Of a stretch of DNA of 64,000 nt, positions 5,827 to 55,130 are shown piece after piece. The stretch lies in NCBI RefSeq assembly GCF_964213995.1, contig NC_135811.1:25544001-25608000 (forward strand), in the 5' to 3' direction. Each line of letters begins with the position of its first letter. Position 1 is the stretch's first letter. This stretch comes from Mustelus asterias (lineage: Eukaryota). A program made the position numbers and the translations under genes. The notes under the pieces were generated by a model. The model was given only the letters and a program-made list of their open reading frames with translations. It was not told the DNA's origin and did no database searches.

Positions 5827-6555
5827 CAATTCCCCCCTTTTCCCTCCCTCCCAATCCCCCCTTTTCCCTCCCTCTCATTCCCCCCTTTTCCCTCCCTCCC
5901 ACTCCCCCCTTTTCCCTCCCTCCCACTCCCCCCTTTTCCCTCCCTCCCACTCCCCCCTTTTCCCTCCCTCCCAATCCCCCCTTTTCCCTCCCTCCCACTC
6001 CCCCCTTTTCCCTCCCTCCCACTCCCTCTTTTCCCTCCCTCCCACTCCCCCCTTTTCCCTCCCTCCCAATCCCCCCTTTTCCCTCCCTCCCACTCCCCCC
6101 TTTTCCCTCCCTCCCACTCCCCCCTTTTCCCTCCCTCCCACTCCCCCCTTTTCCCTCCCTCCCACTCCCCCCTTTTCCCTCCCTCCCACTCCCCCTTTTC
6201 CCTCCCTCCCACTCCCCCCTTTTCCCTCCCTCCCACTCCCCCCTTTTCCCTCCCTCCCACTCCCCCCTTTTCCTTCCCTCCCACTCCCCCCTTTTCCCTC
6301 CTCCCACTCCCCCCTTTTCCCTCCCTCCCACTCCCCCCTTTTCCCCCTCCCTCCCACTCCCCCCTTTTCCCTCCCTCCCACTCCCCCCTTTTCCTTCCCT
6401 CCCACTCCCCCCTTTTCCCTCCTCCCACTCCCCCCTTTTCCCTCCCTCCCACTCCCCCCTTTTCCTTCCCTCCCACTCCCCCCTTTTCCTTCCCTCCCAC
6501 TCCCCCCTTTTCCCTGCCTCACACTTCCCCCTTTTCCCTCCCTCCCACTCCCACT
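5827..6555. repeat. 24-bp polypyrimidine minisatellite (TCCCCCCTTTTCCCTCCCTCCCAC)n, about 30 copies
   Basis: Direct read; explains the 8-aa periodic Pro-rich and Gly-rich ORFs in several frames. Confidence 0.95.
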
Positions 6556-6844: not shown

Positions 6845-7400
6845 AACCCGCCATTAACCCGCCATTAACCCCCCATTAACTCGCCATTAACCCATCATTA
6901 ACCCACCATTAATCCACCATTAACCCACCATTAACCTGCCATTAACCCACCATTAACCTGCCATTAACCCGCCATTAACCCACCATTAACCCACCATTAA
7001 CCCACCATTAACCAACCATTAACCCACCATTAACCCACCATTAATTTGCCATTAACCTGCCATTAACCCATCATTAACCCACCATTAACCCACCATTAAT
7101 CAACCATTAACCCACCATTAATCCACCATTAACCCACCATTAACCCATCATTAACCCACCATTAACCCACCATTAACCCACCATTAACTTGCCATTAACC
7201 TACCATTAACCCATCATTAACCCACCATTAATCCACCATTAACCAACCATTAACCCGCCATTAATCCACCATTAACCAACCATTAACCCATCATTAACTC
7301 ACCATTAACCCACTATTAGCCCACCATTAACCCACCATTAAAGTACAATTAACCTGCCATTAATCCACCATTAACCCACCCTTAACCCACCACTAATCTG
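6845..7400. repeat. 12-bp minisatellite (CCACCATTAACC)n
   Basis: Direct read of tandem units. Confidence 0.95.
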
Positions 7401-13975: not shown

Positions 13976-14457
13976 GAGGTGGAATTTATTATGGGCAGCA
14001 GAGATCCCAACATCTGAAACCAAAACTGGTGCCAGCCCCACCGACCCAAACCCTGGAAGACCTGACGGAATGAAGTGCCTAATTGGCAGCCACCAGCTTC
14101 CCAGCACTACAGAGTACATTAACTTGCAGTGCCATTCAGTGTGTGGCGCATGTTCCGTCCCTGAGAACTGCTGGCCTATCAGAAGTCAGCTTCTCCAGTA
14201 CTGACAACGCCACCAGGAGCAGTGGCCACTGCTGGTACTGTACTGGGGCCCAATGCATGGAACATCAACAGAGCCTTCAAAAGAGGTAAGTCGGGTGGGA
14301 TGGGCGGGGGGGCTCATCTGAGGGGAGAAGGGTGTCCCTATAGAAAGGTCAGGGGTGTGGTTTCATCCAGCTCCCCATTTTCCTTCCTGGTGTCAAGTCC
14401 TGCATTCAAGAACAGAGTGCTTGAGTAAAAGGAACCCAACAGGGTTTGCTGTGTGGT

Positions 14458-14590
14458 TGATGCGCGATTAATCCACTCGGGAGGCTAGATCGTACCCGGG
14501 AATAAAGGCTTTTATTAGCAACAAGAATAGAGCATACTGCTTAACAATACAATCCCAGACTAAGGGGTCACTGGGAAGTGCAGTGACCTT
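14458..14590 (-). repeat. Gypsy 3' LTR remnant (R-U5 side only, truncated at the TATA box by the ERV LTR)
   Basis: 133 bp matching the 5' LTR with 4 mismatches; contains minus-strand AATAAA at ~14511-14516. Confidence 0.9.
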
Positions 14591-15362
14591 TGAAGTCGGA
14601 AAATATACCTCTTGAGGCTGGTATGAGTCAAAATACAGTCAGGCTTTATTCTCACAAGCTTGAGGGAGAACCTGACCCCTTGAAAGCGGAAGCCAAAGTT
14701 CTCTCTGAACACAAGAAGCGTGGATATTTATACATCAGGGTTCCCAATACAAGCCATAAAACAAAGTCCAGTTAACAGTCCTTGATCATAAATTATAGTT
14801 CCTTTCACAGCTTCTGATAGTCTCTGGATCATGGTTAGAGACCATCTGGTATCCTTGGGTCATAAAGCACAATTCTCCTGGTCGTCGTAGCCAAGGTGCC
14901 ACCTCTGGTCCCCTGCTCTTCCCGCAGCTTTTCCTTTGAAGTGACTGAGTACGAGTGCAGCTGTCCCAGTGGGAGTCCTCCTTCAAACGGCCATTCTCGC
15001 ACTCTACCATTTGGTAGCTGCTTCCTTTGTTTAAATCATAGACAAGCCTACGGGAAAGAAAGACTAACATCTATATTCAACTGTCTGTTTTATCAGAATG
15101 ATATAAACAAGCGAGGGAACCATGAACAAATGGCTTATACTAAAAGTAAAAGATGAAACCAAGAACAAATGGCTTATACTACTAAAACTAAAAGATGAAA
15201 GATATGAACAAATGGCTTATACTACTACCAGGAGCAATATAAACAAAGGGGAGACTAGCCATAAGGAAGAGTTATGTTTGTGATACATTCCAGGTACAAA
15301 GTTCAACCTTTTAGGTACAAAATACATTGAGTACAAAAAACATTAACCCTTTCCCTTCTTCA
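14591..15362 (-). repeat. ERV 3' LTR (772 bp)
   Basis: Inverted termini TGAAG...CTTCA; preceded on the minus strand by PPT AAAAGGGGGG-AT (15363-15374); TATAAAT ~14726-14732; AATAAA ~14645-14650; three U3 direct repeats GAACAAATGGCTTATACTA at 15124-15225. Confidence 0.88.
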
Positions 15363-15412
15363 ATCCCCCCTTTTGGTCAGAGGCCAAGTGCAAACATGGC
15401 CCCATGACCAAT

Positions 15413-17125
15413 TTAGAGCCAAATGTTACCAGCATATGGGCCTACCCCCTTTGTCAGGAAGTCTGCCCTTTCTGCCTGCACGCTTGCACTTGGCATAATC
15501 CGGGCTGTTACCGTTTTACAACAAGCGTTCAATAACGCCATACAAATACAACATGCGATAACAATGACAATTAATACAATTAACCCGTGCATCAAGTATG
15601 ATCCCCACGACCCAAACCATTGCCCCAGCCATCCCGGAGGGTTATAATTATGATATTGGCTCCCTTCACCTTGTATTGTCATCGCCACTCATTTGATATG
15701 ATCTGCCAAACGAGTTATATTTTCCGAACCATCTGGGATATATGTGCAGCATTCAGATCCAATTACAGCGCGCGCTCCTCCCTGAGAAGCCAACACATAA
15801 TCGAGTGCCAATCGGTTCTGTAAAGCAACAGTCCGGATAGCTACAACTTCGGCTGATACTTCAGAGATGGCAGTGCTCACCTCCCCGAACCCGTCTCTAG
15901 TTTCATTCGCAATTCTCTCTAAGGTCGAGGCCATATGTATAAGTTCCTGAGCTGCTTTTGCTGTCCCGTAAAGTGGGAAAGCTATCATGAAGAACCGTTC
16001 TGTCTCAGTAATGGCTCGCTTAGTCCTAAGCAGGTGTATCTCGGGGTGGTCCCGTAAGTCGGTGTAATGGTGAATATAGGGTACCACATATGCCAAATAA
16101 CATGATCCTGCCCAATCCCAAGGAAGCCATGGGTAGGCATTGTTCCCGCAAACAAAATAGGTACCATTATATGCAGTCGTGCTGTTCATATAAGTAGAGG
16201 AGAGGCTGACCAGGACGTCAGCAGTGGGGCAATGGACTGTAATCTGTTGCACCAAAAGCCAGGCACCACTGGTGACATTAATCTGCTGGGTACAGTAGCT
16301 ATGGCCCACAGGTATGGTTCCATTCCTTACCAGGCAGATAGATCCCCCTTGTCGATTTTCCACAATGAAGTGGGGTGGGGAATCTGATCTATCATAGCTA
16401 GGCTGGTAATGGTTCGTAAAGGCTGAAAGAGTGCATCCTCCGCCTCCTAACCCCAAAACAGCATCGCTGTCGCTGACATTGAAAGTACCTTGCATAGTAG
16501 TACCTGATGGGGTTTTAAATGCGACTTTCCTTGTCCCGTTCTGGGTTCCATTTTGATTCAAAACCCACTCCACCATTTCCGGAGTTGACAAAGGGATAGG
16601 GAATAAAGGACTTCCCCCATTTCCTCCGTGCGTGGGAATGTGTGAGCAGACCCAGCACTTGCTCAAATTTGACTGTAATGCATGCAAGTGAGACATATAC
16701 ATGAAAGTGTTCACAGGATGGGGCCTGATTTTAGAGGATTGGTACAATGAGCGCTTGGATCGGCCAAATCTCGTGTTACTGTACTCATCCTCCCGAGCCT
16801 TCCGCTGATGCCGGGTACAGGTTGATCCCAGTCGCTCAGCCAAACACCGAAAATTCCAGATACACCAAGTTACATTGCATGGGAAACCCTAATCACCTTG
16901 CCCCTCCAACAGAGTTGGCAACATGGTATGGTTAAGAAATCCTGAGCAGTGGTCCCTACGGGTAACCTCCCAGGGACCTATTCCATGTGTCGGAAGGTTA
17001 CAATAGACAGACTCATCGTTACAGAGATGCTTGCGATGCTCTGCCCCCAAGTCTACACAACTCCACCTATACTTCCCCTCCGTAACTAGCAGGGCAAGGG
17101 TCGTGAGAAGCAGCAAGAAAATCAT
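15413..17125 (-). pseudogene. env: ERV envelope glycoprotein (gamma-type env) with one frameshift and one nonsense codon
   Basis: Signal peptide MIFLLLLTTLALLVT (17125); frameshift ~16850-16900; SU CWVC motif; furin site RTKR then fusion peptide; immunosuppressive domain LQNRLALDYVLA; CX6CC degenerate as RAVIGSECC; in-frame TGA at 15689-15691; TM anchor LIVLIVIVIACCIC. Confidence 0.9.
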
Positions 17126-17219
17126 CCTGTCACTTAACTAATAACCCGCGCGACTGTTATACAATGGTCCAAAGGCTATACCGCCCGCGCGCCACTGCCC
17201 GCGAACCCGTTCAGCTTGC

Positions 17220-17949
17220 TTAGAGGTCAACCGTCTCGTGTATCTGTGAATTGAGCACATTACATAATTTTTTGCATTTGGCACTGGTATATTCTTTTAA
17301 TTGAGTCCAATGTTTCCAGACACCCCTGCCCTGCATATCCACACAGGCACAAGTATCGCCACTAATTATGACCTTATAGGGGCCATTCCATTTGGGGGCG
17401 AACCCAGGTTTCCCAGGTAACGTCTTCACCATAACCTTGCTGCCCGCCGGAGGTACCTCAGGGGTCTGTTCTAATTTATTTTGCTCATCCTTCACTACTT
17501 GGTTTTCCCTTACTGCTTTTCACATATCCTTCAGTTGGGCGCTTAATTCTAAAACATATCGTCTAATTCTATCCCGTAATGGGCCTACATCCGCCCCACC
17601 GGTAATAATGGACTCGGGCAGTTGCATAGCCCTTCCGGTCATTAACTCATATGGTGTCAACCCAGTGGTTCGATTCGTAGTGGCTCTAAGCTTCATTAAT
17701 ATAATGGGTAACACCTCGGTCCATCCCTTTCCTGAGTCCTGCATGGCCTTAGCTAGGGAGGTCTTGAGTGTTCTATTCATACGCTCCACCATTCCCGAAC
17801 TTTGAGGATGGTAGGGTATGTGAAATTTCTGTTTTATCCCCATAAGTTGACAAATGGTTTTTACTACCCTTCCCATGAAGTGGGTGCCCTGATCAGAGTC
17901 TATTTGTAACGGTACCCCCCACCTTGGGATAACTTCCTCAGCTAATATT
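17220..17949 (-). pseudogene. pol: ERV pol integrase C-terminal half (5'-truncated)
   Basis: ILAEEVIPRWGVPLQIDSDQGTHF...HIPYHPQSSGMVERMNRTLK...GLTPYELMTGR; in-frame TGA at ~17520; GPY/F motif PKWNGPYKV. Confidence 0.9.
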
Positions 17950-20900
17950 GTGACCGTGGTGTTCCTCTCTCCAAGGTGGTGACCAGTGACTCCTCCAGTT
18001 CCTCACGCACGGGTGGACCTCGAGGTGGCAACAATCTCCTGGACTCAGGCAAGCTGTACACGGGAGTAAGAGGATTAAGTGGAGGTCCCGATACTGCCCG
18101 CGCCGTGTCAGGGGGGGAGAGAATGGGCAAAGGAACCCTAACCAGGGGTGCGGGAGTGACGGGGGTTTCCAGGTCCCCTGCAGGCGCCAGATCTCGGATA
18201 GAGACCATGTCCTCTCGCCCGTCAGGATATGCTACATAGGCATATTGAGAGTTGGCGTGGAGGAGGTGGACCTGTTCAACCAAAGGGTCGGACTTGCGGG
18301 TCCTAACATGCCGCCACAGGAGGACAGGTCCTGAGTACATCAACCAAGACGGCAGGGAGGTCCCAGAGGAAGACTTCCTAGGGAAGGTAAACATCCGCTC
18401 ATGTGGGGTAGCATTGGTTGCCGTACACAGGAGGGACCGGATTGAATGGAGCGCATCAGAAAGTACCTCTTGCCAACGGGAGACTGGAAGACCCCTAGAC
18501 CTTAACGCCAGTAAGACAGCCTTCCAGACTGTAGCGTTTTCTCTTTCGACCTGCCCGTTACCCCTGGGGTTGTAACTCGTAGTCCTACTTGAGGCAATTC
18601 CTTTAGAGAGCAGGTATTGGCTCAAGTCGTCGCTCATAAACGACGAACCCCTATCACTGTGGATATAACTGGGGTAGCCGAACAGGGTAAAAAGTCTCCG
18701 CAGGGCTTTGATGACCGTGGCAGCGGACATGTCAGAACAGGGAATGGCAAAAGGGAATCGGGAGTACTCGTCAACCACGTTGAGGAAATACACATTCCGA
18801 TCTGTTGAAGGAAGGGGGCCCTTGAAATCAACACTCAGTCGTTCAGCAGGGCGAGTGGCCTTAATGAGGTGTGCCCTGTCAGGTCGGTAGAAGTGCGGCT
18901 TGCATTCAGCACATACCTGGCAGCTTCGAGTTATCGACCTGACATCCTCCACTGAGTAGGGCAGATTCCGGGCCTTTACAAAATGGAAGAGCCGAGTGAT
19001 CCCCGGATGGCAGAGATCATTGTGGAGGGCCTGTAGCCGGTCCTCCTGCACACTGGCACATGTTCCACGCGACAGGGCATCTGAGGACTCATTGAGCTTC
19101 CCCGGACGGTACAGGATATCATAGTTGTAGGTGGAGAGTTCGATTCTCCACCTCAAGATTTTATCATTCTTAATTTTACCCCTTAAAGTGTTGTTGAACA
19201 TGAATGCCACGGACCGCTGGTCCGTGAGCAGGATAAATCGTTTTCCAGCCAAATAATGGCGCCAATGCCGTACGGCCTCCACAATGGTCTGAGCCTCTTT
19301 TTCCACAGAGGAGTGCCGAATTTCAGGGCCTTGGAGGGTGCGAGAGAAAAAGGCGACGGGCCTGCCTGCCTGGTTAAGTGTGGCAGCCAGGGCGAAATCA
19401 GATGCATCACTCTCCACCTGGAAGGGGATGGACTCATCGACAGCTTTTATCCCTTCAAAGGCTAAGCGAGCCTCTGCTGTTAGGGGAAAAGAGGTAGATT
19501 TTATGAGCGGACGGGCTTTGTCCGCATAATTGGGAACCCACTCGTAATACGAGAAGAAGCCTAAGCATCTTCTCAGTGCTTTGATGCTAGTGGGTAGGGG
19601 AAGTTCAAGGAGGGGACGGATACGGTCTGGATCGGGGCCGATGTCCCCGTTTTCCACCACGTATCCGAGGATTGCTAGGCGGTGCTTGCTGAATACACAC
19701 TTCTCCCTGTTATAGGTCAGATTCAGGCGAGACGCAGTGCGTAAAAACTTCAGGAGGTTGGCGTCGTGGTCCTGCTGGTCATGGCCGCAGATAGTGACGT
19801 TGTCCAGGTACGGGAAGGTAGCCCGTATCCCGTTTTGGCCCACCATTCGGTCCATCTCACGCTGGAAGACCGAGACCCCATTAGTGACGCCAAAAGGGAC
19901 CCTTAAGAAGTGGTAGAGACGGCCATCCGCCTCAAAGGCCGTGTATTTTCGGTCCTCTGGGCGAATGGGGAGCTGGTGGTAGGCTGACTTCAAGTCGATG
20001 GTGGAGAACACCCGGTACTGCGCAATCTGGTTGACCATGTCAGATATGCGTGGGAGAGGGTACATGACCAGCTGCGTGTACCTATTAATGGTCTGACTAT
20101 AGTCTATGACCATCCGGGGCTTGTCTCCAGTCTTAACCACCACGACTTGTGCTCTCCATGGGCTAGTGCTAGGTTGAATGATCCCTTCCCTGAGGAGCCA
20201 CTGAACCTCAGATCGAATAAAGATCCGATCTTCAGCACTGTAACGCCTGCTCTTAGTTGCGATGGGCTTGCAGCCTGGCACGAGATTTTCAAATAAAGAA
20301 GGCGGGGTAATTTTGAGTGTCGAGAGACTGCACGTGGAGCACGTTGGGCAATTTGGAGGCTGCTGTTCTCCCACTGAAAGTGGAGGGAGTGGCCCATCGT
20401 ACTGCAGGGTCACACTCCTCAGGTGGACCAAAAAGTCTAGTCCCAGGAGTACCGGAGCGCAAAGGTGCGGTAACACGAGGAGCCTGAAGTTCTCATAAAC
20501 TGTGCCCCGCACCGTTAGAGTTACCACGCAGCTCCCAAGAACGGTAACAGATCGGGACCTCGACGCCATAGAGATTGTCTGCCTGACAGTTTGTACGCGG
20601 AGAGCGCACCGTTTCACGGTATCCGGATGAATGAAACTCTCCGTGCTCCCGCTGTCAAACAGACAATGTATCAGGCGTCCATTTACCTCTATGTCCATCA
20701 TGGACTTGTCGAGTCTGTGAGGCTTGGCCTGGTCCAGGATGATTGACGCCACTGTTGGATCCCGAGTACAACTGCAGGCAGCTGAGATGGTCGACGATGA
20801 GGACCCCTGCTGGTCGTCTGCGGCCGGTGTCGACCAAAATGGCTGCGCCCATGGATTGCACGTGGTCGATGGCATTGAAAGTGGCGGCACCCGCAGGTCG

Positions 20901-21807
20901 CACGTGTTTTGCGTCGTCGTCATCAGGAATGGCGGCGCCCGTGAATCGCACGTGGTTGAAGACATCGACGAAGCTGGAGACGAGGAGACGGATCCTGGGG
21001 AGTCACACGCAGCACTGTTTGGCTTCGAAGGGGGCTTCGCTCGGCACACTTTAGCATAGTGCCCTTTCTTTCCACAAGCGGAGCAAAATACCGTCCTGGC
21101 CAGACATCTCTGGCGAGGGTGCTTCGCCAATCCACAGAAATAGCACCGTGGGCCTCCTGGAGTTGCCGCAGCCGTCAGGTCCGAGGTTGAAAGCACGATC
21201 GCGCAGTTCCTAGGAGTCGCTGGGTAGAGTTGAGTCGGTGGCTGTACTTCCCACGATGTTCCCACGTGGTCGGTGGGGTAAGTTTCAAGACTTCTGGAGG
21301 CCGTTTCCATCGCATCAGCCAATTCAACCGTCTTAGCTAGGTCCAAGTTACCCTGCTCTAGCAGCCGCAGGCGAATATAGGATGAGCCGATTCCCGCCAC
21401 GAACGCATCTCGGATCAGATCGTTAGTGTATTGAGTAGTCGACACTGGCTTGCAATTGCAGGCTCTGGCTGCTGCTGAAGTTCGCGCTGGTACTGTCCCG
21501 TCGTTTCGCCGGGCTGCCGCCGTCGAGTGGCTAGTAGGTGACGAGCATGAATCTCGTTTGGCGGTTTATGGTACAGCTTCTTGAGTAATTCGATGGCCTC
21601 TTTGTAGTCTTGGGAATCACGGATTGTTGCATATACAGTGTCACTTACCCTTGCGTGGAGGACCCGCAATTAATCGGCGTCGTTTTGGACTGCTGTTGAG
21701 GCGTCGATATAATCCTGGAAACACTTCAACCAATGGTCGAAAGTGTTCGACGCTCCAGCGGCACGCGGATCTAAGGTTAGCCGATCGGGTTTCAGCATCT
21801 GCTCCAT
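17942..21807 (-). pseudogene. gag-pol: Gypsy gag-pol polyprotein (capsid, 2x CCHC, protease, RT, RNase H, integrase), with an 1167-aa open segment
   Basis: ATG at 21807 (MEQMLKPDRL...); TAA at ~21670-21672; frameshift ~21470; then ORF 17942-21445 with CYFC..H..C and CSAC..H..C, LFDSGS protease, RT (DLKSAYHQ, PFG, YLDN), RNase H (ESDAS, EKEA), IN (HNDLCH..C..C, VDFKGP, SDRG, VERE); PR-RT-RH-IN order. Confidence 0.95.
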
Positions 21808-21842
21808 TTTTTTTTCAAAACAAAATTTGTTGCTCATAAAAT

Positions 21843-22279
21843 TGATGCACGATTAATCCACTCGGGAGGCTAGATCGTACCCGGGAATAAAGGCTTTTAT
21901 CAGCAACAAGAATAGAGCATACTGCTTAACAATACAATGTTTGTGAACAGAATTCCCACTCACCTGAAGAAGGGGCTAAGAGCTCCGAAAGCTTGTGTGG
22001 CTTTTGCTACCAAATAAACCTGTTAGACTTTAACCTGGTGTTGTTAAACTTCTTACTAACAATACAATCCCAGACTAAGGGGTTACTAGGAAGTGCAGTG
22101 ACCTTTATACTCCTATAGGAAGGCGGAGCCAACCGGAGTGTACCACAGAACAATGCTAACAGGTGGAACACCCCAACCCTAACCCCAACAGTAACAAGAG
22201 TAACATATGTACAAGTACCCATAGTGATAACCATCTATGGTTCAGTACCCATAGTGGTAACCATCTATGGTTCACCACA
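21843..22279 (-). repeat. Gypsy 5' LTR, interrupted by a Penelope fragment
   Basis: TGTGGTGAACC...GTGCATCA on the minus strand; TATAAA ~22104-22109; 30-bp tandem duplication at 22214-22273. Confidence 0.9.
21939..22056 (+). mobile_element. Penelope-like pLTR fragment with minimal hammerhead ribozyme
   Basis: TSD TAACAATACAAT (21927-21938 and 22057-22068); CAC-CTGAAGA-AGGGGCTAAGAGCTCC-GAAA-GCTT-GTG; absent from the 3' LTR copy. Confidence 0.85.
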
Positions 22280-22659
22280 GTGGTTAACTAGCATAATAAG
22301 TCACCTTGAATGTGTTAATTAATGTGCAAAGCAATAACCGGGAACTGCTTCAGTCACACAATTATCAACTCAGTTTATGGTTTCAGTTTCCTGGAATAAA
22401 ATATTTAATGCTGTGGTAAATGCATATTGGAACATGAAAAACTGGCAAATCAGACTTATTGCCGAGGAATATGTTCTACAAGTCATGGTTTAAAATTACT
22501 GGCACCTAAAGCAGCCCCAGATGCTTCATTAATTCATAATCGAGAAATTGGTTCATGGCAACTTGAGGGTGTGAACTGAGCTCAGGATCCAATGAAGGAC
22601 CGTGCTCCTGTGACAATAACTCATTTTATAAAGTGGCCCTTTGGCAAGCACTAGGTCCC

Positions 22660-25315: not shown

Positions 25316-26740
25316 TTTTCTATCTTTGAATAAACTAAAGAATGTTCAAAACTCACAAGAGCTAAACAGCTTAAGCCTGGAATTCATATAAAACATGCTA
25401 TAGAACCTCATCTTTTTCACATCAGGGACTAGGGGTTGAATCCAATCCAGACAGATGGAATGTTCATTTCTCTGCTGAAAGTTTATGTGAAGTTTGGAGA
25501 GTCTCAGCACAGGACAGAAGTCTACAGAAAAATGCCCCCAAATTTAGCACCATTCACTGCTGTCTTTCTCAGAGTGACAGCCAAATTTCAGTGGATGGGA
25601 AGGGAACAGCACACATTATTGCAGTAGATGCAGATTTCTGAATCTGGGGTTCAACTCCCCAAAACAGGAGGTTCCGTTCTGCATCTGACCTATTATATGT
25701 GTGACTTGCGAGTGTTTGATGACACCACAGAGTGTAAAATGCCTTTTTTAACCCCAGCATCCTTCATGTTGACAAACGCTTCCATCTAGCCAAGAGTACC
25801 CTTGCCTCCACCAAAGTTTTTATCATCCGCATCTATTACTTACATAAGCCTGACACAGCTACATACGGTGGGCAGAATTCAATGCCTACAGAAAACTCAG
25901 AAATCAATTTTATTTGTTTGGAATGACAACATGCGTCTTGGAAGAGCAATAAACTGGAACTTAGAGCTCCCTTTAATTTTGCAAGAGGGGAAACAGAGGA
26001 ATTTGAATTTAAAGGCAATTTGTAGGGCTCAACAGTGAATCATTTTAGATCTTTGTCAGCCAGGGTTGGAACACAATCCAGTCAGATATGACGTAAATGG
26101 GTTTTGTTTTTCACTGACACCTGTTGAAGATCCCAAGCGAAATGAGTTTATGGAAGCTCAGCCCAACTCCCAGCGGACCTGATCCCACAGTATAAAATTA
26201 CTCTCCCATCAGACCTTAATTGGCACAAGCTCAGCAATTTTGCTGAGAAAACTGCAAGCCACAGAGTGCAGGATATGAAAAGATTTCATTGCAACAGTAG
26301 GGGATATCTTTAAGGACAAGGAAAAAAATTGACAGGGCAATGCAGGCCCTGACCTTTAGCGTACCTGGGTGGCAGAGGTCTAGGATGAATCTTCCTCAAA
26401 AATAAATCTAAAGAATAGGAGCAAACCACCTCTGCAGAGCGTCATTGTGGGACTGATACCCTCTTAAGAGTCCTCAATGCTATTCTTGATGGCAAAAATG
26501 GGAAATGAAAAACTAAAATAGCTTCATTTGTCAGCGGTCATTACAATGAGTACACGTGTTAAACAAATTTACAAAGTGTACACATTAACCTTGTTTTTAG
26601 CTCTCTTGTGTATTTGTTTGGATGCAATGAGAGAGCATCTTTAGCCTGGTTCTCACAGCAAATATTTTACATGCATTGTTCGGTAAGGCAGTATGGCTTT
26701 GTTTCTGGAAATGCATTTTATGGTGCGATAGGGCAGTAAG

Positions 26741-27745
26741 TCCAGGATGGGATAGTGCAATATGTCCCCGGTGGGATAGTGCAGTATGTCCGGGGATGGG
26801 ATAGTGCAGTATGTCCGGGGATGGGATAGTGCAGTATGTCCGGGGAGGGATAGTGCAGTATGTCCAGGATGGGATAGTGCAGTATGTCCCCGGTGGGATA
26901 GTGCAGTATGTCCGGGATGGGATCGTGCAGTATGTCCGGAATGGGATAGTGCAGTATGTCCGGGGTGGGATAGTGCAGTATGTCCGGGGAGGGATAGTGC
27001 AGTATGTCCTGGGAGGGATCGTGCAGTATGTCCAGGGTGATATAGTGCAGTATGTCCAGGATGGGATAGTGCAGTATGTCCGGGGTGGGATAGTGTAGTA
27101 TGTCCAGGATGGGATAGTGCAGTATGTCCGGGGTGGGATAGTGCAGTATGTCCAGGATGGGATAGTGCAGTATGTCCAGGATGGGATAGTGCAGTATGTC
27201 CGGGATGGGATAGTGCAGTATGTCCAGGATGGGATAGTGCAGTATGTCCGGGGTGGGATAGTGCAGTATGTCCAGGATGGGATAGTGCAGTATGTCCGGG
27301 ATGGGATAGTGCAGTATGTCCGGGGTGGGATAGTGCAGTATGTCCGGGGTGGGATAGTGCAGTATGTCCAGGGTGATATAGTGCAGTATGTCCGGGGTGG
27401 GATAGTGCAGTATGTCCAGGATGGGATAGTGCAGTATGTCCGGGATGGGATAGTGCAGTATGTCCAGGATGGGATAGTGCAGTATGTCCAGGATGGGATA
27501 GTGCAGTATGTCCAGGGTGATATAGTGCAGTATGTCCGGGGTGGGATAGTGCAGTCTGTCCGGGGTGGGATAGTGCAGTATGTCCGGGATGGGATAGTGC
27601 AGTATGTCCGGGATGGGATAGTGCAGTATGTCCAGGATGGGATCGTGCAGTATATCCGGGGAGGGATAGTGCAGTATGTCCAGGATGGGATCGTGCAGTA
27701 TATCCGGGGAGGGATAGTGCAGTATGTCTGGGGTGGGATATTGTA
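26741..27745. repeat. 24-bp minisatellite (GGGATAGTGCAGTATGTCCRGGRT)n, about 41 copies
   Basis: Direct read; source of the GIVQYVRG repeat ORFs. Confidence 0.95.
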
Positions 27746-52232: not shown

Positions 52233-52732
52233 AAACAGGCATAAGCTAGCATTGAGGGGGAGCCATTCATTCCCATCCTTGTTTATATACAGCTCCTTGT
52301 GAATTAGTTACGAAACTCCATTGACAGTGGGCAGGATATTTTGGGGGGTGGGGGGGGGGGGGCGCGGCGGTGGTGTTGGACAGCTTCCCTCCCCCCCCAC
52401 TGAGGTGTGAATCAGCGTGGAGTCCGCCCCGCAGCCATGACGCACTGTGGGTGGGCTCACTTGGAGGAAGTCCCACCCTCAGGAGCTGCCAGCCAATCCG
52501 ACTGGCTGGCAGCACCACCAGTCCAGGAGCACCAAGAGAGCATTAGTGGGCATTGCCGGGACTGCAATGAAGAAGAAAAAGGCCCGATGGATCCCAGAGG
52601 CTGCTCGGTCTGGGGTCTGTGCAGGGAAGGTTTGGGCCGGTTAAGGCAGGGGAGTGGGTGTGCTGGGTTAAATACAGTAAGAAGTTTAACAACACCAGGT
52701 TAAAGTCCAACAGGTTTATTTGGTAGCAAAAG

Positions 52733-52777
52733 CCACACAAGCTTTCGAGGCTCTGAGCCCCTTCTTCAGGTGAGTGG
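52733..52777 (-). ncRNA. Minimal type I hammerhead ribozyme (copy 1)
   Basis: CCACUCAC-CUGAAGA-A-GGGGCU(CAG)AGCCUC-GAAA-GCUU-GUGUGG: conserved core, 6-bp stem II, palindromic AAGCUU stem III. Confidence 0.8.
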
Positions 52778-53069
52778 GAATTCTGTTCACAAACAGAACT
52801 TATAAGACACAGACTCAATTTACATGAATAATGGTTGGAATGCGAATACTTACAACTAATATCTTGTCTGCTTTCTTGCATCTTTGTAGAAACTTGATGT
52901 CTGTGTCGATATGCGCGATCTTCTTGGCGATCCTCTCCACTTGGAGCCGGCAGTTTGCGGTGTCTATGGTAGTCATGATGTGGAGATGCCGGCGTTGGAC
53001 TGGGGTAAACACAGTAAGAAGTTTAACAACACCAGGTTAAAGTCCAACAGGTTTATTTGGTAGCAAAAG

Positions 53070-53114
53070 CCACACAAGCTTTCGAGGCTCTGAGCCCCTT
53101 CTTCAGGTGAGTGG
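53070..53114 (-). ncRNA. Minimal type I hammerhead ribozyme (copy 2)
   Basis: Identical to copy 1, +337 bp. Confidence 0.8.
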
Positions 53115-53406
53115 GAATTCTGTTCACAAACAGAACTTATAAGACACAGACTCAATTTACATGAATAATGGTTGGAATGCGAATACTTACAACTAATATC
53201 TTGTCTGCTTTCTTGCATCTTTGTAGAAACTTGATGTCTGTGTCGATATGCGCGATCTTCTTGGCGATCCTCTCCACTTGGAGCCGGCAGTTTGCGGTGT
53301 CTATGGTAGTCATGATGTGGAGATGCCGGCGTTGGACTGGGGTAAACACAGTAAGAAGTTTAACAACACCAGGTTAAAGTCCAACAGGTTTATTTGGTAG
53401 CAAAAG

Positions 53407-53451
53407 CCACACAAGCTTTCGAGGCTCTGAGCCCCTTCTTCAGGTGAGTGG
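53407..53451 (-). ncRNA. Minimal type I hammerhead ribozyme (copy 3)
   Basis: Identical to copy 1, +674 bp. Confidence 0.8.
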
Positions 53452-53914
53452 GAATTCTGTTCACAAACAGAACTTATAAGACACAGACTCAATTTACATG
53501 AATAATGGTTGGAATGCGAATACTTACAACTAATATCTTGTCTGCTTTCTTGCATCTTTGTAGAAACTTGATGTCTGTGTCGATATGCGCGATCTTCTTG
53601 GCGATCCTCTCCACTTGGAGCCGGCAGTTTGCGGTGTCTATGGTAGTCATGATGTGGAGATGCCGGGTAGCAAGAAAGGGAGTGTTCTCTCTTAAGGGAG
53701 GGAACACCACCTGATCTGAAAAAACACAGCCCCTGAAAAAAGGGCACCGCTTTCCTTCCCACATTCTGAATTGCTTTTAAAACTGGGCTGCCCGCTACAA
53801 CCCAACGGTCCCCGTCAACCATGTTATGACAGGGGCAATGTATTATGGGGGTCACTTGGCTTGAAAACAAATCCTGTTGATCTTTGATTATCTATTTCCA
53901 TATGAGGAGCAGGT

Positions 53915-55130
53915 TAACCACTGAGGGACCATGGGAAGCGGGGACAGGGGGAGTTAGCCACTGGGGGACCATGGGAAGTGGGGGGTGGGGTGGGGGGGGG
54001 GAATTAGCCACTGGAGGACCATGGGGAGTAGGGGTGAGGAGGGGAACTAGCCACTGGGGGACCATGGAAAGTGGGGGGTGAGGGGGGGAATTAGCCACGG
54101 GGGAACCATGGGGAGTGGGGCAAGGGAGGAATTAGCCACTGGGGGACCATAGGGAGTGGGGGGCTGAGGGGGGGATTAACCACTGGGGGACTACGGGAAG
54201 TGGGGGTGAGGGGGGAATTAGGCACTGGGGGACCATGAGAAGTGGGGGGTGAGGGGGTCAATTAGCCACTGGAGGACCATGGGGAGTAGGGGTGAGGAGG
54301 GGAACTAGCCACTGGGGGACCATGGAAAGTGGGGGGTGAGGGGGGGAATTAGCCACGGGGGGACCATGGGGAGTGGGGCAAGGGAGGAATTAGCCACTGG
54401 GGGACCATAGGGAGTGGGGGGCCGAGGGGGGGATTAACCACTGGGGGACTACGGGAAGTGGGGGTGAGGGGGGAATTAGGCACTGGGGGACCATAAGAAG
54501 TGGGGGGTGAGGGGGTCAATTAGCCACTGGAGGACCATGGGAAGTGGGGCGTGAGGGTGGAATTAGTCACTGGGGGACCATGGGGAGTGGGGGGGTGAGG
54601 GGGGAATTAGCCATTGGGGAGCCATGGGAAGTGGGGCGAGAGAGGGAATTAGCCACTGGGTGACAATGGGAAGTGGGGGGCCGAGGAGGGAGATTAGCCA
54701 CTGAGGGACCATGGGAAGTGGGGGGCCGAGGAGGGAGAATTAGCCACTGGTGGACCCTAGGGTGTGGGGGGGGGGGGGGGGACTTAGTCACTGGGGGACC
54801 ATAGGGAGTGGGGGGCGGGGGGAATTAGCCACTGGGGGACCATGGGGAGTGGGGGCCAAGGAGGGGGAATTAGCCACTGGGGACCATGGGGAGTGGGGGA
54901 GTGAGGGGGGAGATTAGCCACTGGGGGACCATGGGAAGTGAGGGGTGAGGGGGAGTGGGGAGCTAAGGGGGGAAATTAACCATTGGGGAGCAATGGGAAG
55001 TGGGAGGTGAGGGGGGGATTAGCCATTAGGGGGCCATGGCAGGTGGGGGGTGAGGGGGGGATTAGCCACTGGGGGGCCATGGCGGATGGGGGGTGATTAG
55101 CCACTGGGGAGCAATGGGGAGTGGGGGCAG
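53915..55130. repeat. G-rich ~37-bp minisatellite (GGAATTAGCCACTGGGGGACCATGGGAAGTGGGGGGTGAG-like) with a 258-bp higher-order duplication
   Basis: Direct read; AATTAGCCACTGGAGGACC recurs at 54002, 54260 and 54518. Confidence 0.9.

Follow-up and report, generated by a model that had tools for sequence, protein, structure and literature searches.

The hybrid retroelement at positions 14458-22279 of the window (the whole stretch of DNA that was analysed, 64,000 nucleotides) is most probably a one-off, dead composite, built stepwise in the chromosome by nested insertion and deletion. The 5' LTR and gag-pol of a Gypsy element are followed by an integrase fragment, env, polypurine tract (PPT) and LTR of an ERV, and by a remnant of the Gypsy 3' LTR. 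All pieces are co-oriented on the minus strand, and one 5-bp TSD, GTGGT on the plus strand, encloses the whole. A first-pass annotation had described this layout, which we recover with the same coordinates and orientation. The insert in the 5' LTR, the gag stop and frameshift, the two in-frame deletions in RT/RNase H and the two env stops are additions to that description:

22280-22284, strand not assigned: Gypsy TSD, upstream copy (GTGGT on plus)
21843-22279, minus: Gypsy 5' LTR, TG...CA, ~305 nt without the insert
21938-22057, minus: 120-nt insert in the Gypsy 5' LTR, a dispersed-repeat piece
21895-21909, minus: LTR arm that matches the primer-site arm by complementarity; made up of 8 nt and the poly(A) signal
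21827-21841, minus: arm at the primer-binding position, candidate self-priming site, pairs 14/15 with the LTR arm
21566-21807, minus: start of Gypsy gag (ATG at 21807)
17950-21565, minus: remainder of Gypsy gag-pol (zinc-knuckle region, PR, RT, RNase H, IN core)
17949-17950, minus: Gypsy/ERV deletion junction, blunt, without microhomology, single copy
17220-17949, minus: C-terminal half of ERV integrase, out of frame with Gypsy pol
15413-17125, minus: ERV env, gamma type (SU CXXC, furin site, ISD)
15363-15374, minus: ERV PPT
14591-15362, minus: ERV 3' LTR, TG...CA, 772 nt (poly(A) signal at 14650)
14458-14590, minus: Gypsy 3' LTR remnant, 133 nt, beginning in the TATA-like box, where the ERV integrated
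14453-14457, strand not assigned: Gypsy TSD, downstream copy (GTGGT on plus)

The annotation had also noted that the Gypsy PPT and U3 and the ERV 5' LTR, gag and RT are absent, and this is borne out. The missing sequence amounts to ~310 nt of Gypsy (the last ~20-24 codons, PPT and U3) and 5.5-6.1 kb of ERV.

The left part of the composite is a Ty3/gypsy element by its PR-RT-RNase H-IN order, Ty3-like RT, TG...CA LTRs and 5-bp TSD. An open frame of 1207 codons (21565-17942) contains protease, RT, RNase H and integrase domains (Pfam), has Ty3 Gag-Pol as its best match in the PDB (E 5e-55) and terminates, as the annotation stated, at a TAG within the ERV DNA. This long frame lacks a gag start because gag is broken twice: its codon 46 is a stop (21672-21670), and the frame shifts near 21470. 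Relative to four of four relatives, the RT/RNase H region carries two in-frame deletions, near 19542 and 19444. The RT motif YLDN is family-wide, and our literature search found no paper on this motif in retrotransposons. The 5' LTR has a TATA-like box at ~22110 and a mutated poly(A) hexamer, and the 120-nt repeat insertion, possibly 'Penelope-like', is flanked by a 12-nt duplication (22058-22069 and 21926-21937); Pfam searches of the frames near this repeat gave no identification. The family is very abundant, with 8835 PPT-LTR sites (3' ends) in the 3.68-Gb assembly, and its elements are ~4.7 kb long; relatives of the window copy have the PPT. Comparison with a protein atlas did not place the Gypsy clade.

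The right part derives from a gag-pro-pol-env provirus of 8.8-10 kb, represented in the assembly by 260 LTR ends and 148 env sites. Its MLV-like RT with connection and RNase H domains, gamma-type env and PBS of tRNA type (by its TGG) are those of a class I ERV. The closest solved structure to the RT is that of MLV (E 2e-89), ahead of foamy virus (1e-37) and Ty3 (3e-24); together with the env motifs, these matches suggest a class I-like (gamma/epsilon-like) parent. Class I fish ERVs of clade Mu, e.g. CmiERV II/III, share with it the gag-pro-pol-env organization, an RT closest to MLV, gamma-type env motifs, a TGG-type PBS and a 5-bp TSD, as far as the excerpts of the two source papers go (PMC4422223; PMC6001957). 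At nine of nine loci among the matches listed the LTR ends are identical to those in the window, and 5-bp TSDs are common at solo LTRs. The window env, recognized as TLV_coat (Pfam, E 7e-13), is interrupted by two stops (16889-16891 and 15689-15691), and the integrase half by one (17520-17522). The TM cysteine motif is non-canonical in the window and reads CX6CC in two relatives. The gag and env breaks are absent from relatives whose env frame is open (583 aa in locus L044). Separately, the many env sites lying only ~3.7 kb from a PBS were considered as a chimeric family and rejected, as 20/20 loci had no Gypsy DNA or protein match; most represent a pol-less ERV subfamily.

Both joints are exact, and each is found once. 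The internal joint falls precisely at 17950|17949 with no bases shared between the parents. Microhomology was dropped as the basis for joining, since the longest word common to the 25-nt surroundings of the two breakpoints (6 nt) lies off the joint. At the other joint the ERV LTR runs to precisely its terminal CA, which lies in the TATA-like box of the Gypsy LTR; this marks an integrase reaction, and Gypsy sequence resumes without a gap. In the 3.68-Gb assembly searched, junction 17950|17949 is spanned by the window alone among the 40 candidates scored out of 1277, and a 26-nt pattern with one mismatch allowed has a single match genome-wide. Likewise, junction 14591|14590 is spanned by the window alone among the 40 candidates scored out of 2103, with one genome-wide pattern match. 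No hybrid LTR was found elsewhere in the assembly. Gypsy pol was found upstream of env at none of 48 other env loci (49 of 148 env sites were examined, window included; for most of one 30-locus set the upstream sequence covered was 1.5 kb).

With joints that are unique, parents that are abundant and separate, and frames that are dead, the locus is best read as a nested insertion with deletion and not as env capture. The first-pass annotation had itself named single-locus junctions, with parental Gypsy and ERV existing separately, as the outcome that would mark a dead nested insertion, and this is what we observe. Its simplest history, ERV integration into the Gypsy 3' LTR followed by a deletion, is thereby supported. 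Its wider proposals, a 'snapshot of env capture' and a mobile chimeric family that the locus would template or belong to, are not supported: both junctions are unique in the assembly, the parents exist as many separate copies, no hybrid LTR turned up at another place in the assembly, and gag and env are broken.

A mobile Gypsy-env chimera, of which the locus would be a member or founder, could have arisen if reverse transcription switched templates between co-packaged RNAs, or the locus could be capable of being copied by read-through to the Gypsy R. The order LTR-gag-pol-env-PPT-LTR is present, and the Gypsy poly(A) signal lies 134 nt past that of the ERV, so that a read-through RNA would have matching R ends. 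However, the element is single-copy, its LTRs are unequal, its gag and env are broken, and the ERV poly(A) signal precedes the Gypsy R. The joint between ERV LTR and Gypsy is that of an integration and not of a template switch, and a copied product would probably offer an ERV U3 end to the Gypsy integrase. In addition, excerpts of a survey report no intact vertebrate homologues of the env-bearing invertebrate Gypsy elements (PMC13524379). We consider such an origin very unlikely and the mobile reading already largely refuted here. There is an equally slim chance that a Gypsy element which took its env from a vertebrate class I retrovirus was copied as a unit and that the locus represents its founder or its last surviving copy, with sisters in other individuals, related species or unassembled sequence.

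The ends of the composite bear on the same question. Reverse transcription makes both ends of an element alike. Here, the 5' LTR consists of Gypsy sequence only, and the ERV LTR and the Gypsy remnant make up the 3' end, from which it follows that the composite has never been copied in one piece. Judged from its reading frames, the composite cannot make full-length Gag or Env; at most, non-productive transcripts may start from the Gypsy 5' LTR or the ERV LTR.

The nested history has the marks of its kind: an inner att end within the outer element, an intact outer TSD, separate parents and unique joints. A copy of the abundant Gypsy family integrated with the 5-bp TSD that is still present. Its 3' LTR would then have received a class I provirus in the same orientation, at the TATA-like box, where the right end of the provirus is preserved. 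A deletion of ~5.8-6.4 kb, which left the observed junction, would have followed and was probably repaired by blunt end joining; it removed the end of the Gypsy coding region with PPT and U3, and from the ERV the 5' LTR, PBS, gag, pro, RT and N-terminal half of integrase. Neutral decay and the small repeat insertion may have come last. The Gypsy LTR pair has 4 differences in 133 nt and ERV LTR pairs differ by 1.0-2.8%, which is compatible with an ERV of the same age as the Gypsy copy or younger, 133 nt being too short for firm ordering.

Alternatively, the ERV may have been truncated in a single aberrant integration, in which integrase inserted the right end and host repair joined a shortened left end ~310 nt upstream, with concurrent deletion of target DNA; the same dead composite would result. 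This fits the two sides of the insert, of which one has an intact att end and the other a blunt, homology-free joint, and aberrant HIV integrations with adjacent host deletions are described under integrase inhibition or mutation (PMC5041404). However, that precedent involves impaired integrase, the 5.5-6.1 kb of viral DNA must also have been absent at integration, and deletions and rearrangements after insertion are common among the ERV copies examined. We regard the one-step route as improbable, and prefer integration followed by deletion.

The junctions could also stem from a chimeric join made during assembly. Four read runs (three from the best-matching organism, one from another) were available as short contigs only, and among the contigs listed none bridges either junction by 31 nt; one covers the unique right flank plus 22 nt of the Gypsy 5' LTR. 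Against an artefact stand the matching TSD in the flanks, the exact ERV att end, the lack of any sequence common to the parents at either joint on which an assembler could slip, and the ~3-4% difference of both halves from their nearest relatives examined. The flank beyond the upstream TSD is single-copy in the assembly (1/1 candidates), and neither a second haplotype nor an empty site was found there (1/1 candidates). We regard misassembly as highly unlikely.

Some nesting of the two families is to be expected: by chance, ~1.7-2.9 ERV insertions would fall inside this Gypsy family, and mutual nests at two other loci (L056 and L146) speak for the nested history. Counting against it, exact co-oriented insertions in a 3' LTR are expected only ~0.06-0.10 times, for this family pair alone and before any deletion, making the event an uncommon one. 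No undeleted intermediate, i.e. a full provirus in a Gypsy 3' LTR, was found in the assembly. One candidate analogue with a related Gypsy followed by a full ERV (C257) was rejected: its Gypsy is complete and the ERV lies ~140 nt beyond, in satellite.

Insertion of one LTR element into another, followed by deletion, is a general and long-known pattern. The window conforms to it: a younger element sits in an older LTR, the outer TSD survives, the deletion has taken one copy of the inner TSD, and the composite is single-copy with decayed frames. It differs in that its pieces are by chance ordered as in an infectious retrovirus genome. Errantiviruses and other env-bearing Ty3-gypsy elements likewise place env and PPT-LTR after a Gypsy-type pol but are, in the excerpts of the survey, families that replicate and whose LTRs match and frames are intact (PMC13524379). 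The window, in contrast, holds one copy with unequal LTRs and broken gag and env, and its env comes complete from a class I-like ERV resident in the vertebrate genome. Env-swapped recombinant ERVs also unite a pol with an env of separate ancestry; according to the passages available, they are products of template switching after co-packaging and go on to spread (PMC10536682), whereas the joint in the window is chromosomal and unspread. None of the titles listed by our literature search (titles and some passages) concerned a Gypsy-env chimera of vertebrates or the present Gypsy family.

Broken and found at one genomic place, the hybrid looks like an ordinary accident rather than a new infectious element, and as found it is of little consequence. 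Nesting plus deletion can nevertheless bring a Gypsy pol beside the env of a retrovirus and in this way supply starting material for env capture. Such composites are also a trap for annotation schemes in which a pol followed by env suffices to define an ERV; a rule of this type appears in the excerpts of PMC4422223. Were sister copies to exist, they would constitute a vertebrate Gypsy carrying an env of retroviral origin, which the available passages of the survey do not report (PMC13524379).

An observation apart concerns priming in the Gypsy family, which has no tRNA primer site: the arm at the primer position has no tRNA-type TGG start. Instead, this 15-nt arm pairs with the family's own LTR, at 14 of 15 positions in the window copy. 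Among loci with a gag ATG following (27/30 kept), 7.4 of 8 variable positions are paired between the two arms. L102, L104 and L107 were dropped for want of a recognized gag start; the L104 sequence belongs to an inverted LTR rather than to a primer site. For 13 arm types, 7.2 positions are paired versus 4.4 +/- 0.5 after permutation (maximum 6.3 in 5000 permutations), and slid controls gave 1.3-4.6. These compensatory changes suggest Tf1-like self-priming. The family, with thousands of copies in which a self-complementary primer site covaries, forms a large natural data set on tRNA-independent priming, which is of more use than the hybrid itself. Pfam detects no chromodomain in the truncated window frame. 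As in Tf1/sushi elements, the primer site is complementary to the element's own LTR, but the paired LTR arm of the Gypsy parent includes the poly(A) signal and its RT reads YLDN, unlike what the available passages describe (PMC4600332). In many Gypsy subfamilies, the LTR arm lies ~20 nt downstream of a TATA-like motif.

The composite block lies on the minus strand between copies of a 5-bp duplication (22279-14458, 7822 nt) and comprises three pieces in this order: Gypsy (4330 nt), ERV (3359 nt) and Gypsy again (133 nt). This confirms the layout claimed by the first-pass annotation, with a single target-site duplication (TSD) pair around all three parts. The coding content is:

21565-17942, minus strand: long Gypsy frame with aspartyl protease, RT, RNase H and integrase domains
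ERV part of the block, minus strand: integrase fragment and TLV_coat env

The nearest solved structure to the Gypsy frame is Ty3 Gag-Pol. Full-length relatives of the ERV part are gag-pro-pol-env proviruses of 8.8-10 kb, and because their RT is nearest to that of MLV, the ERV parent appears class I-like.

With nine Gypsy and six ERV relatives aligned to the window, Gypsy switches cleanly to ERV at 17950/17949, with zero overlap. At 14591/14590 the ERV LTR ends with the same CA terminus as in all nine ERV loci compared, and Gypsy restarts in the middle of the TATA-like box of its LTR. As 5-bp TSDs are common among ERV solo LTRs, one copy of the ERV target site probably survives as the first five bases of this Gypsy remnant. 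Missing are ~137 nt of internal Gypsy sequence, ~174 nt of Gypsy U3 and 5457-6091 nt of ERV (measured against three reference copies).

It is highly probable that an ERV integrated into the Gypsy 3' LTR and that a blunt deletion then fused Gypsy pol to the ERV integrase part, the simplest history proposed earlier; the att-end joint and the purely Gypsy 5' LTR support it. Two negative results count against it: no undeleted intermediate was found in the one assembly searched, and no contig bridging either joint was among the short read contig matches listed. Mis-assembly is very improbable. One-step aberrant integration of the ERV, for which there is a precedent (PMC5041404, in part), is unlikely.

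Both junctions are single-copy. DNA searches gave one spanning match each, the window itself, among the best 40 of 1277 candidates scored for 17950/17949 and the best 40 of 2103 for 14591/14590. Complete counts over the whole assembly, with one mismatch allowed, also gave 1 match each (the reversed control of the 14591/14590 pattern gave 3). The parents are common, with 8835 Gypsy PPT-LTR sites, 5315 exact Gypsy 5' LTR-primer sites (all subfamilies together), 260 ERV LTR ends, 148 ERV env sites and 47 ERV LTR-PBS sites. Chimeras with other junctions were sought at 49 of the 148 env places, window included (30 places with 1.5 kb of upstream sequence; 20 selected loci, 8-9.5 kb long, two overlapping the 30; one earlier locus), and among these Gypsy pol precedes env in the window alone.

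Reverse transcription renders both LTRs alike. The 5' LTR is pure Gypsy and the 3' end is ERV plus Gypsy; therefore, the composite has not been copied as a unit since its formation. The ERV poly(A) signal lies 134 nt ahead of that of Gypsy, and RNA from the Gypsy promoter would usually stop in the ERV R, mismatched to the Gypsy R. RNA reading through to the Gypsy signal might in principle serve as a template in trans, yielding hybrid LTRs at both ends, as expected of a mobile Gypsy-env chimera; however, the 14591/14590 pattern (one mismatch, whole assembly) revealed no hybrid LTR elsewhere, and such a chimera is very improbable.

In the Gypsy gag, the frame is stopped at codon 46 and shifted near 21470. 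Two in-frame deletions in pol are absent from all four relatives; the catalytic motifs checked are present. The env is interrupted by two internal stops, and its TM cysteine motif is altered (583 codons are open in the env of L044, another locus of the assembly). With junctions single-copy, LTR ends unequal and gag and env broken, the env-capture reading is unsupported: the locus is an ordinary dead nested insertion.

Comparison of the Gypsy LTR ends shows 4 differences in 133 positions, four ERV LTR pairs diverge by 1.0-2.8%, and both halves are ~3-4% from the nearest relatives compared. This fits Gypsy inserting first and the ERV later or near-simultaneously, the 133-nt LTR overlap being too short for tight ordering. 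The slow substitution rate assumed in PMC4422223 (in part) would give tens of millions of years.

Likeness to errantiviruses is limited to gene order; all three testable features (multi-locus junction, equal LTRs, open gag-pol and env) are lacking. According to PMC13524379 (in part), vertebrates yielded no intact elements homologous to invertebrate env-bearing Gypsy elements. Retroviral env exchange is described as requiring co-packaging and template switching (PMC10536682, in part), whereas the window joint is an att site without such a sign; the comparison literature also includes parts of PMC3601003 and PMC6001957. Both parent families may already be described in Repbase-type libraries.

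At ~4.7 kb per copy the Gypsy family makes up ~1.1% of the genome, so that of 150-260 ERV insertions 1.7-2.9 are expected to fall within the family, and 0.06-0.10 to lie co-oriented in a 3' LTR (all inputs being lower bounds). Given this low expectation, the exact layout is uncommon for the Gypsy/ERV pair, yet unremarkable over many family pairs. A small sample of loci holds a solo Gypsy LTR inside ERV pol (L056), a Gypsy-type LTR inside env (L146) and LINE-like frames inside ERVs; at L167:7590-9499 a LINE with a GDSL esterase-like ORF1 and an endonuclease frame lies inside ERV env. The loci L063, L056, L057 and L058 (G000:C257:481500-504500) hold a complete Gypsy of a related kind (76% alike), a solo ERV LTR and a full but rearranged ERV with an internal inversion and the solo Gypsy LTR in pol, all embedded in simple-repeat satellite.

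In the Gypsy parent, a family of thousands of copies with the RT motif YLDN, a primer site of TGG type is lacking. Its 5' LTR is followed by 15 nt that pair with a stretch of its own LTR made up of 8 nt and the poly(A) signal:

21841-21827, minus strand: primer-site arm, pairing with the LTR arm at 21909-21895

In the first 30 of the 5315 loci (L095-L124), mean pairing was 7.7 over 10 variable positions, against 4.8 +/- 0.4 with permuted partners; when the 3 rows in which no gag start was recognised are left out, it is 7.4 of 8 variable positions. For 13 arm types it was 7.2 against 4.4 +/- 0.5 (maximum 6.3 of 5000 permutations), where the helix's invariant half is set by the search pattern and permutation ignores relatedness; slid controls gave 1.3-4.6. 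At six helix positions Watson-Crick pairs are exchanged for different ones among these types. The arm pairing fits Tf1-type self-priming, which has been linked before to elements of hosts ranging from fungi to vertebrates (PMC4600332, in part); the family rather likely self-primes without tRNA. Alternatively, the arm may mask the 5' poly(A) signal that it pairs with. A TATA-like motif precedes the arm by 18-23 nt in 17 of 27 copies and is absent in the window's own subfamily. At one locus (L104), Gypsy LTRs inverted head-to-head mimic the primer site.

A multi-copy ERV subfamily lacks pol (L155-L169, L171, L172 and L174; e.g. G000:C1:100451758-100458354). Its order is LTR, gag (375 codons, often open), a conserved AT-rich stretch of 1.5 kb (32% GC; 93-100% identity in 40 of 40 scored matches), integrase remnant, degraded env and LTR, with LTR pairs 0.4-2.6% different. 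It is this derivative that actually spread, presumably in trans.

A small, possibly Penelope-like repeat was inserted three independent times at one 12-nt Gypsy LTR site (window 21938-22057 and the loci L054 and L020), with differing length and arrangement; the site is a target hot spot. The repeat also lies within three 337-nt tandem units, 99% alike, at 52663-53666. Long open frames in the following minisatellite arrays are probably repeat artefacts:

5831-6552: 24-nt unit
6845-7396: 11-nt unit
26727-27740: 24-nt unit
53914-54953: ~44-nt unit
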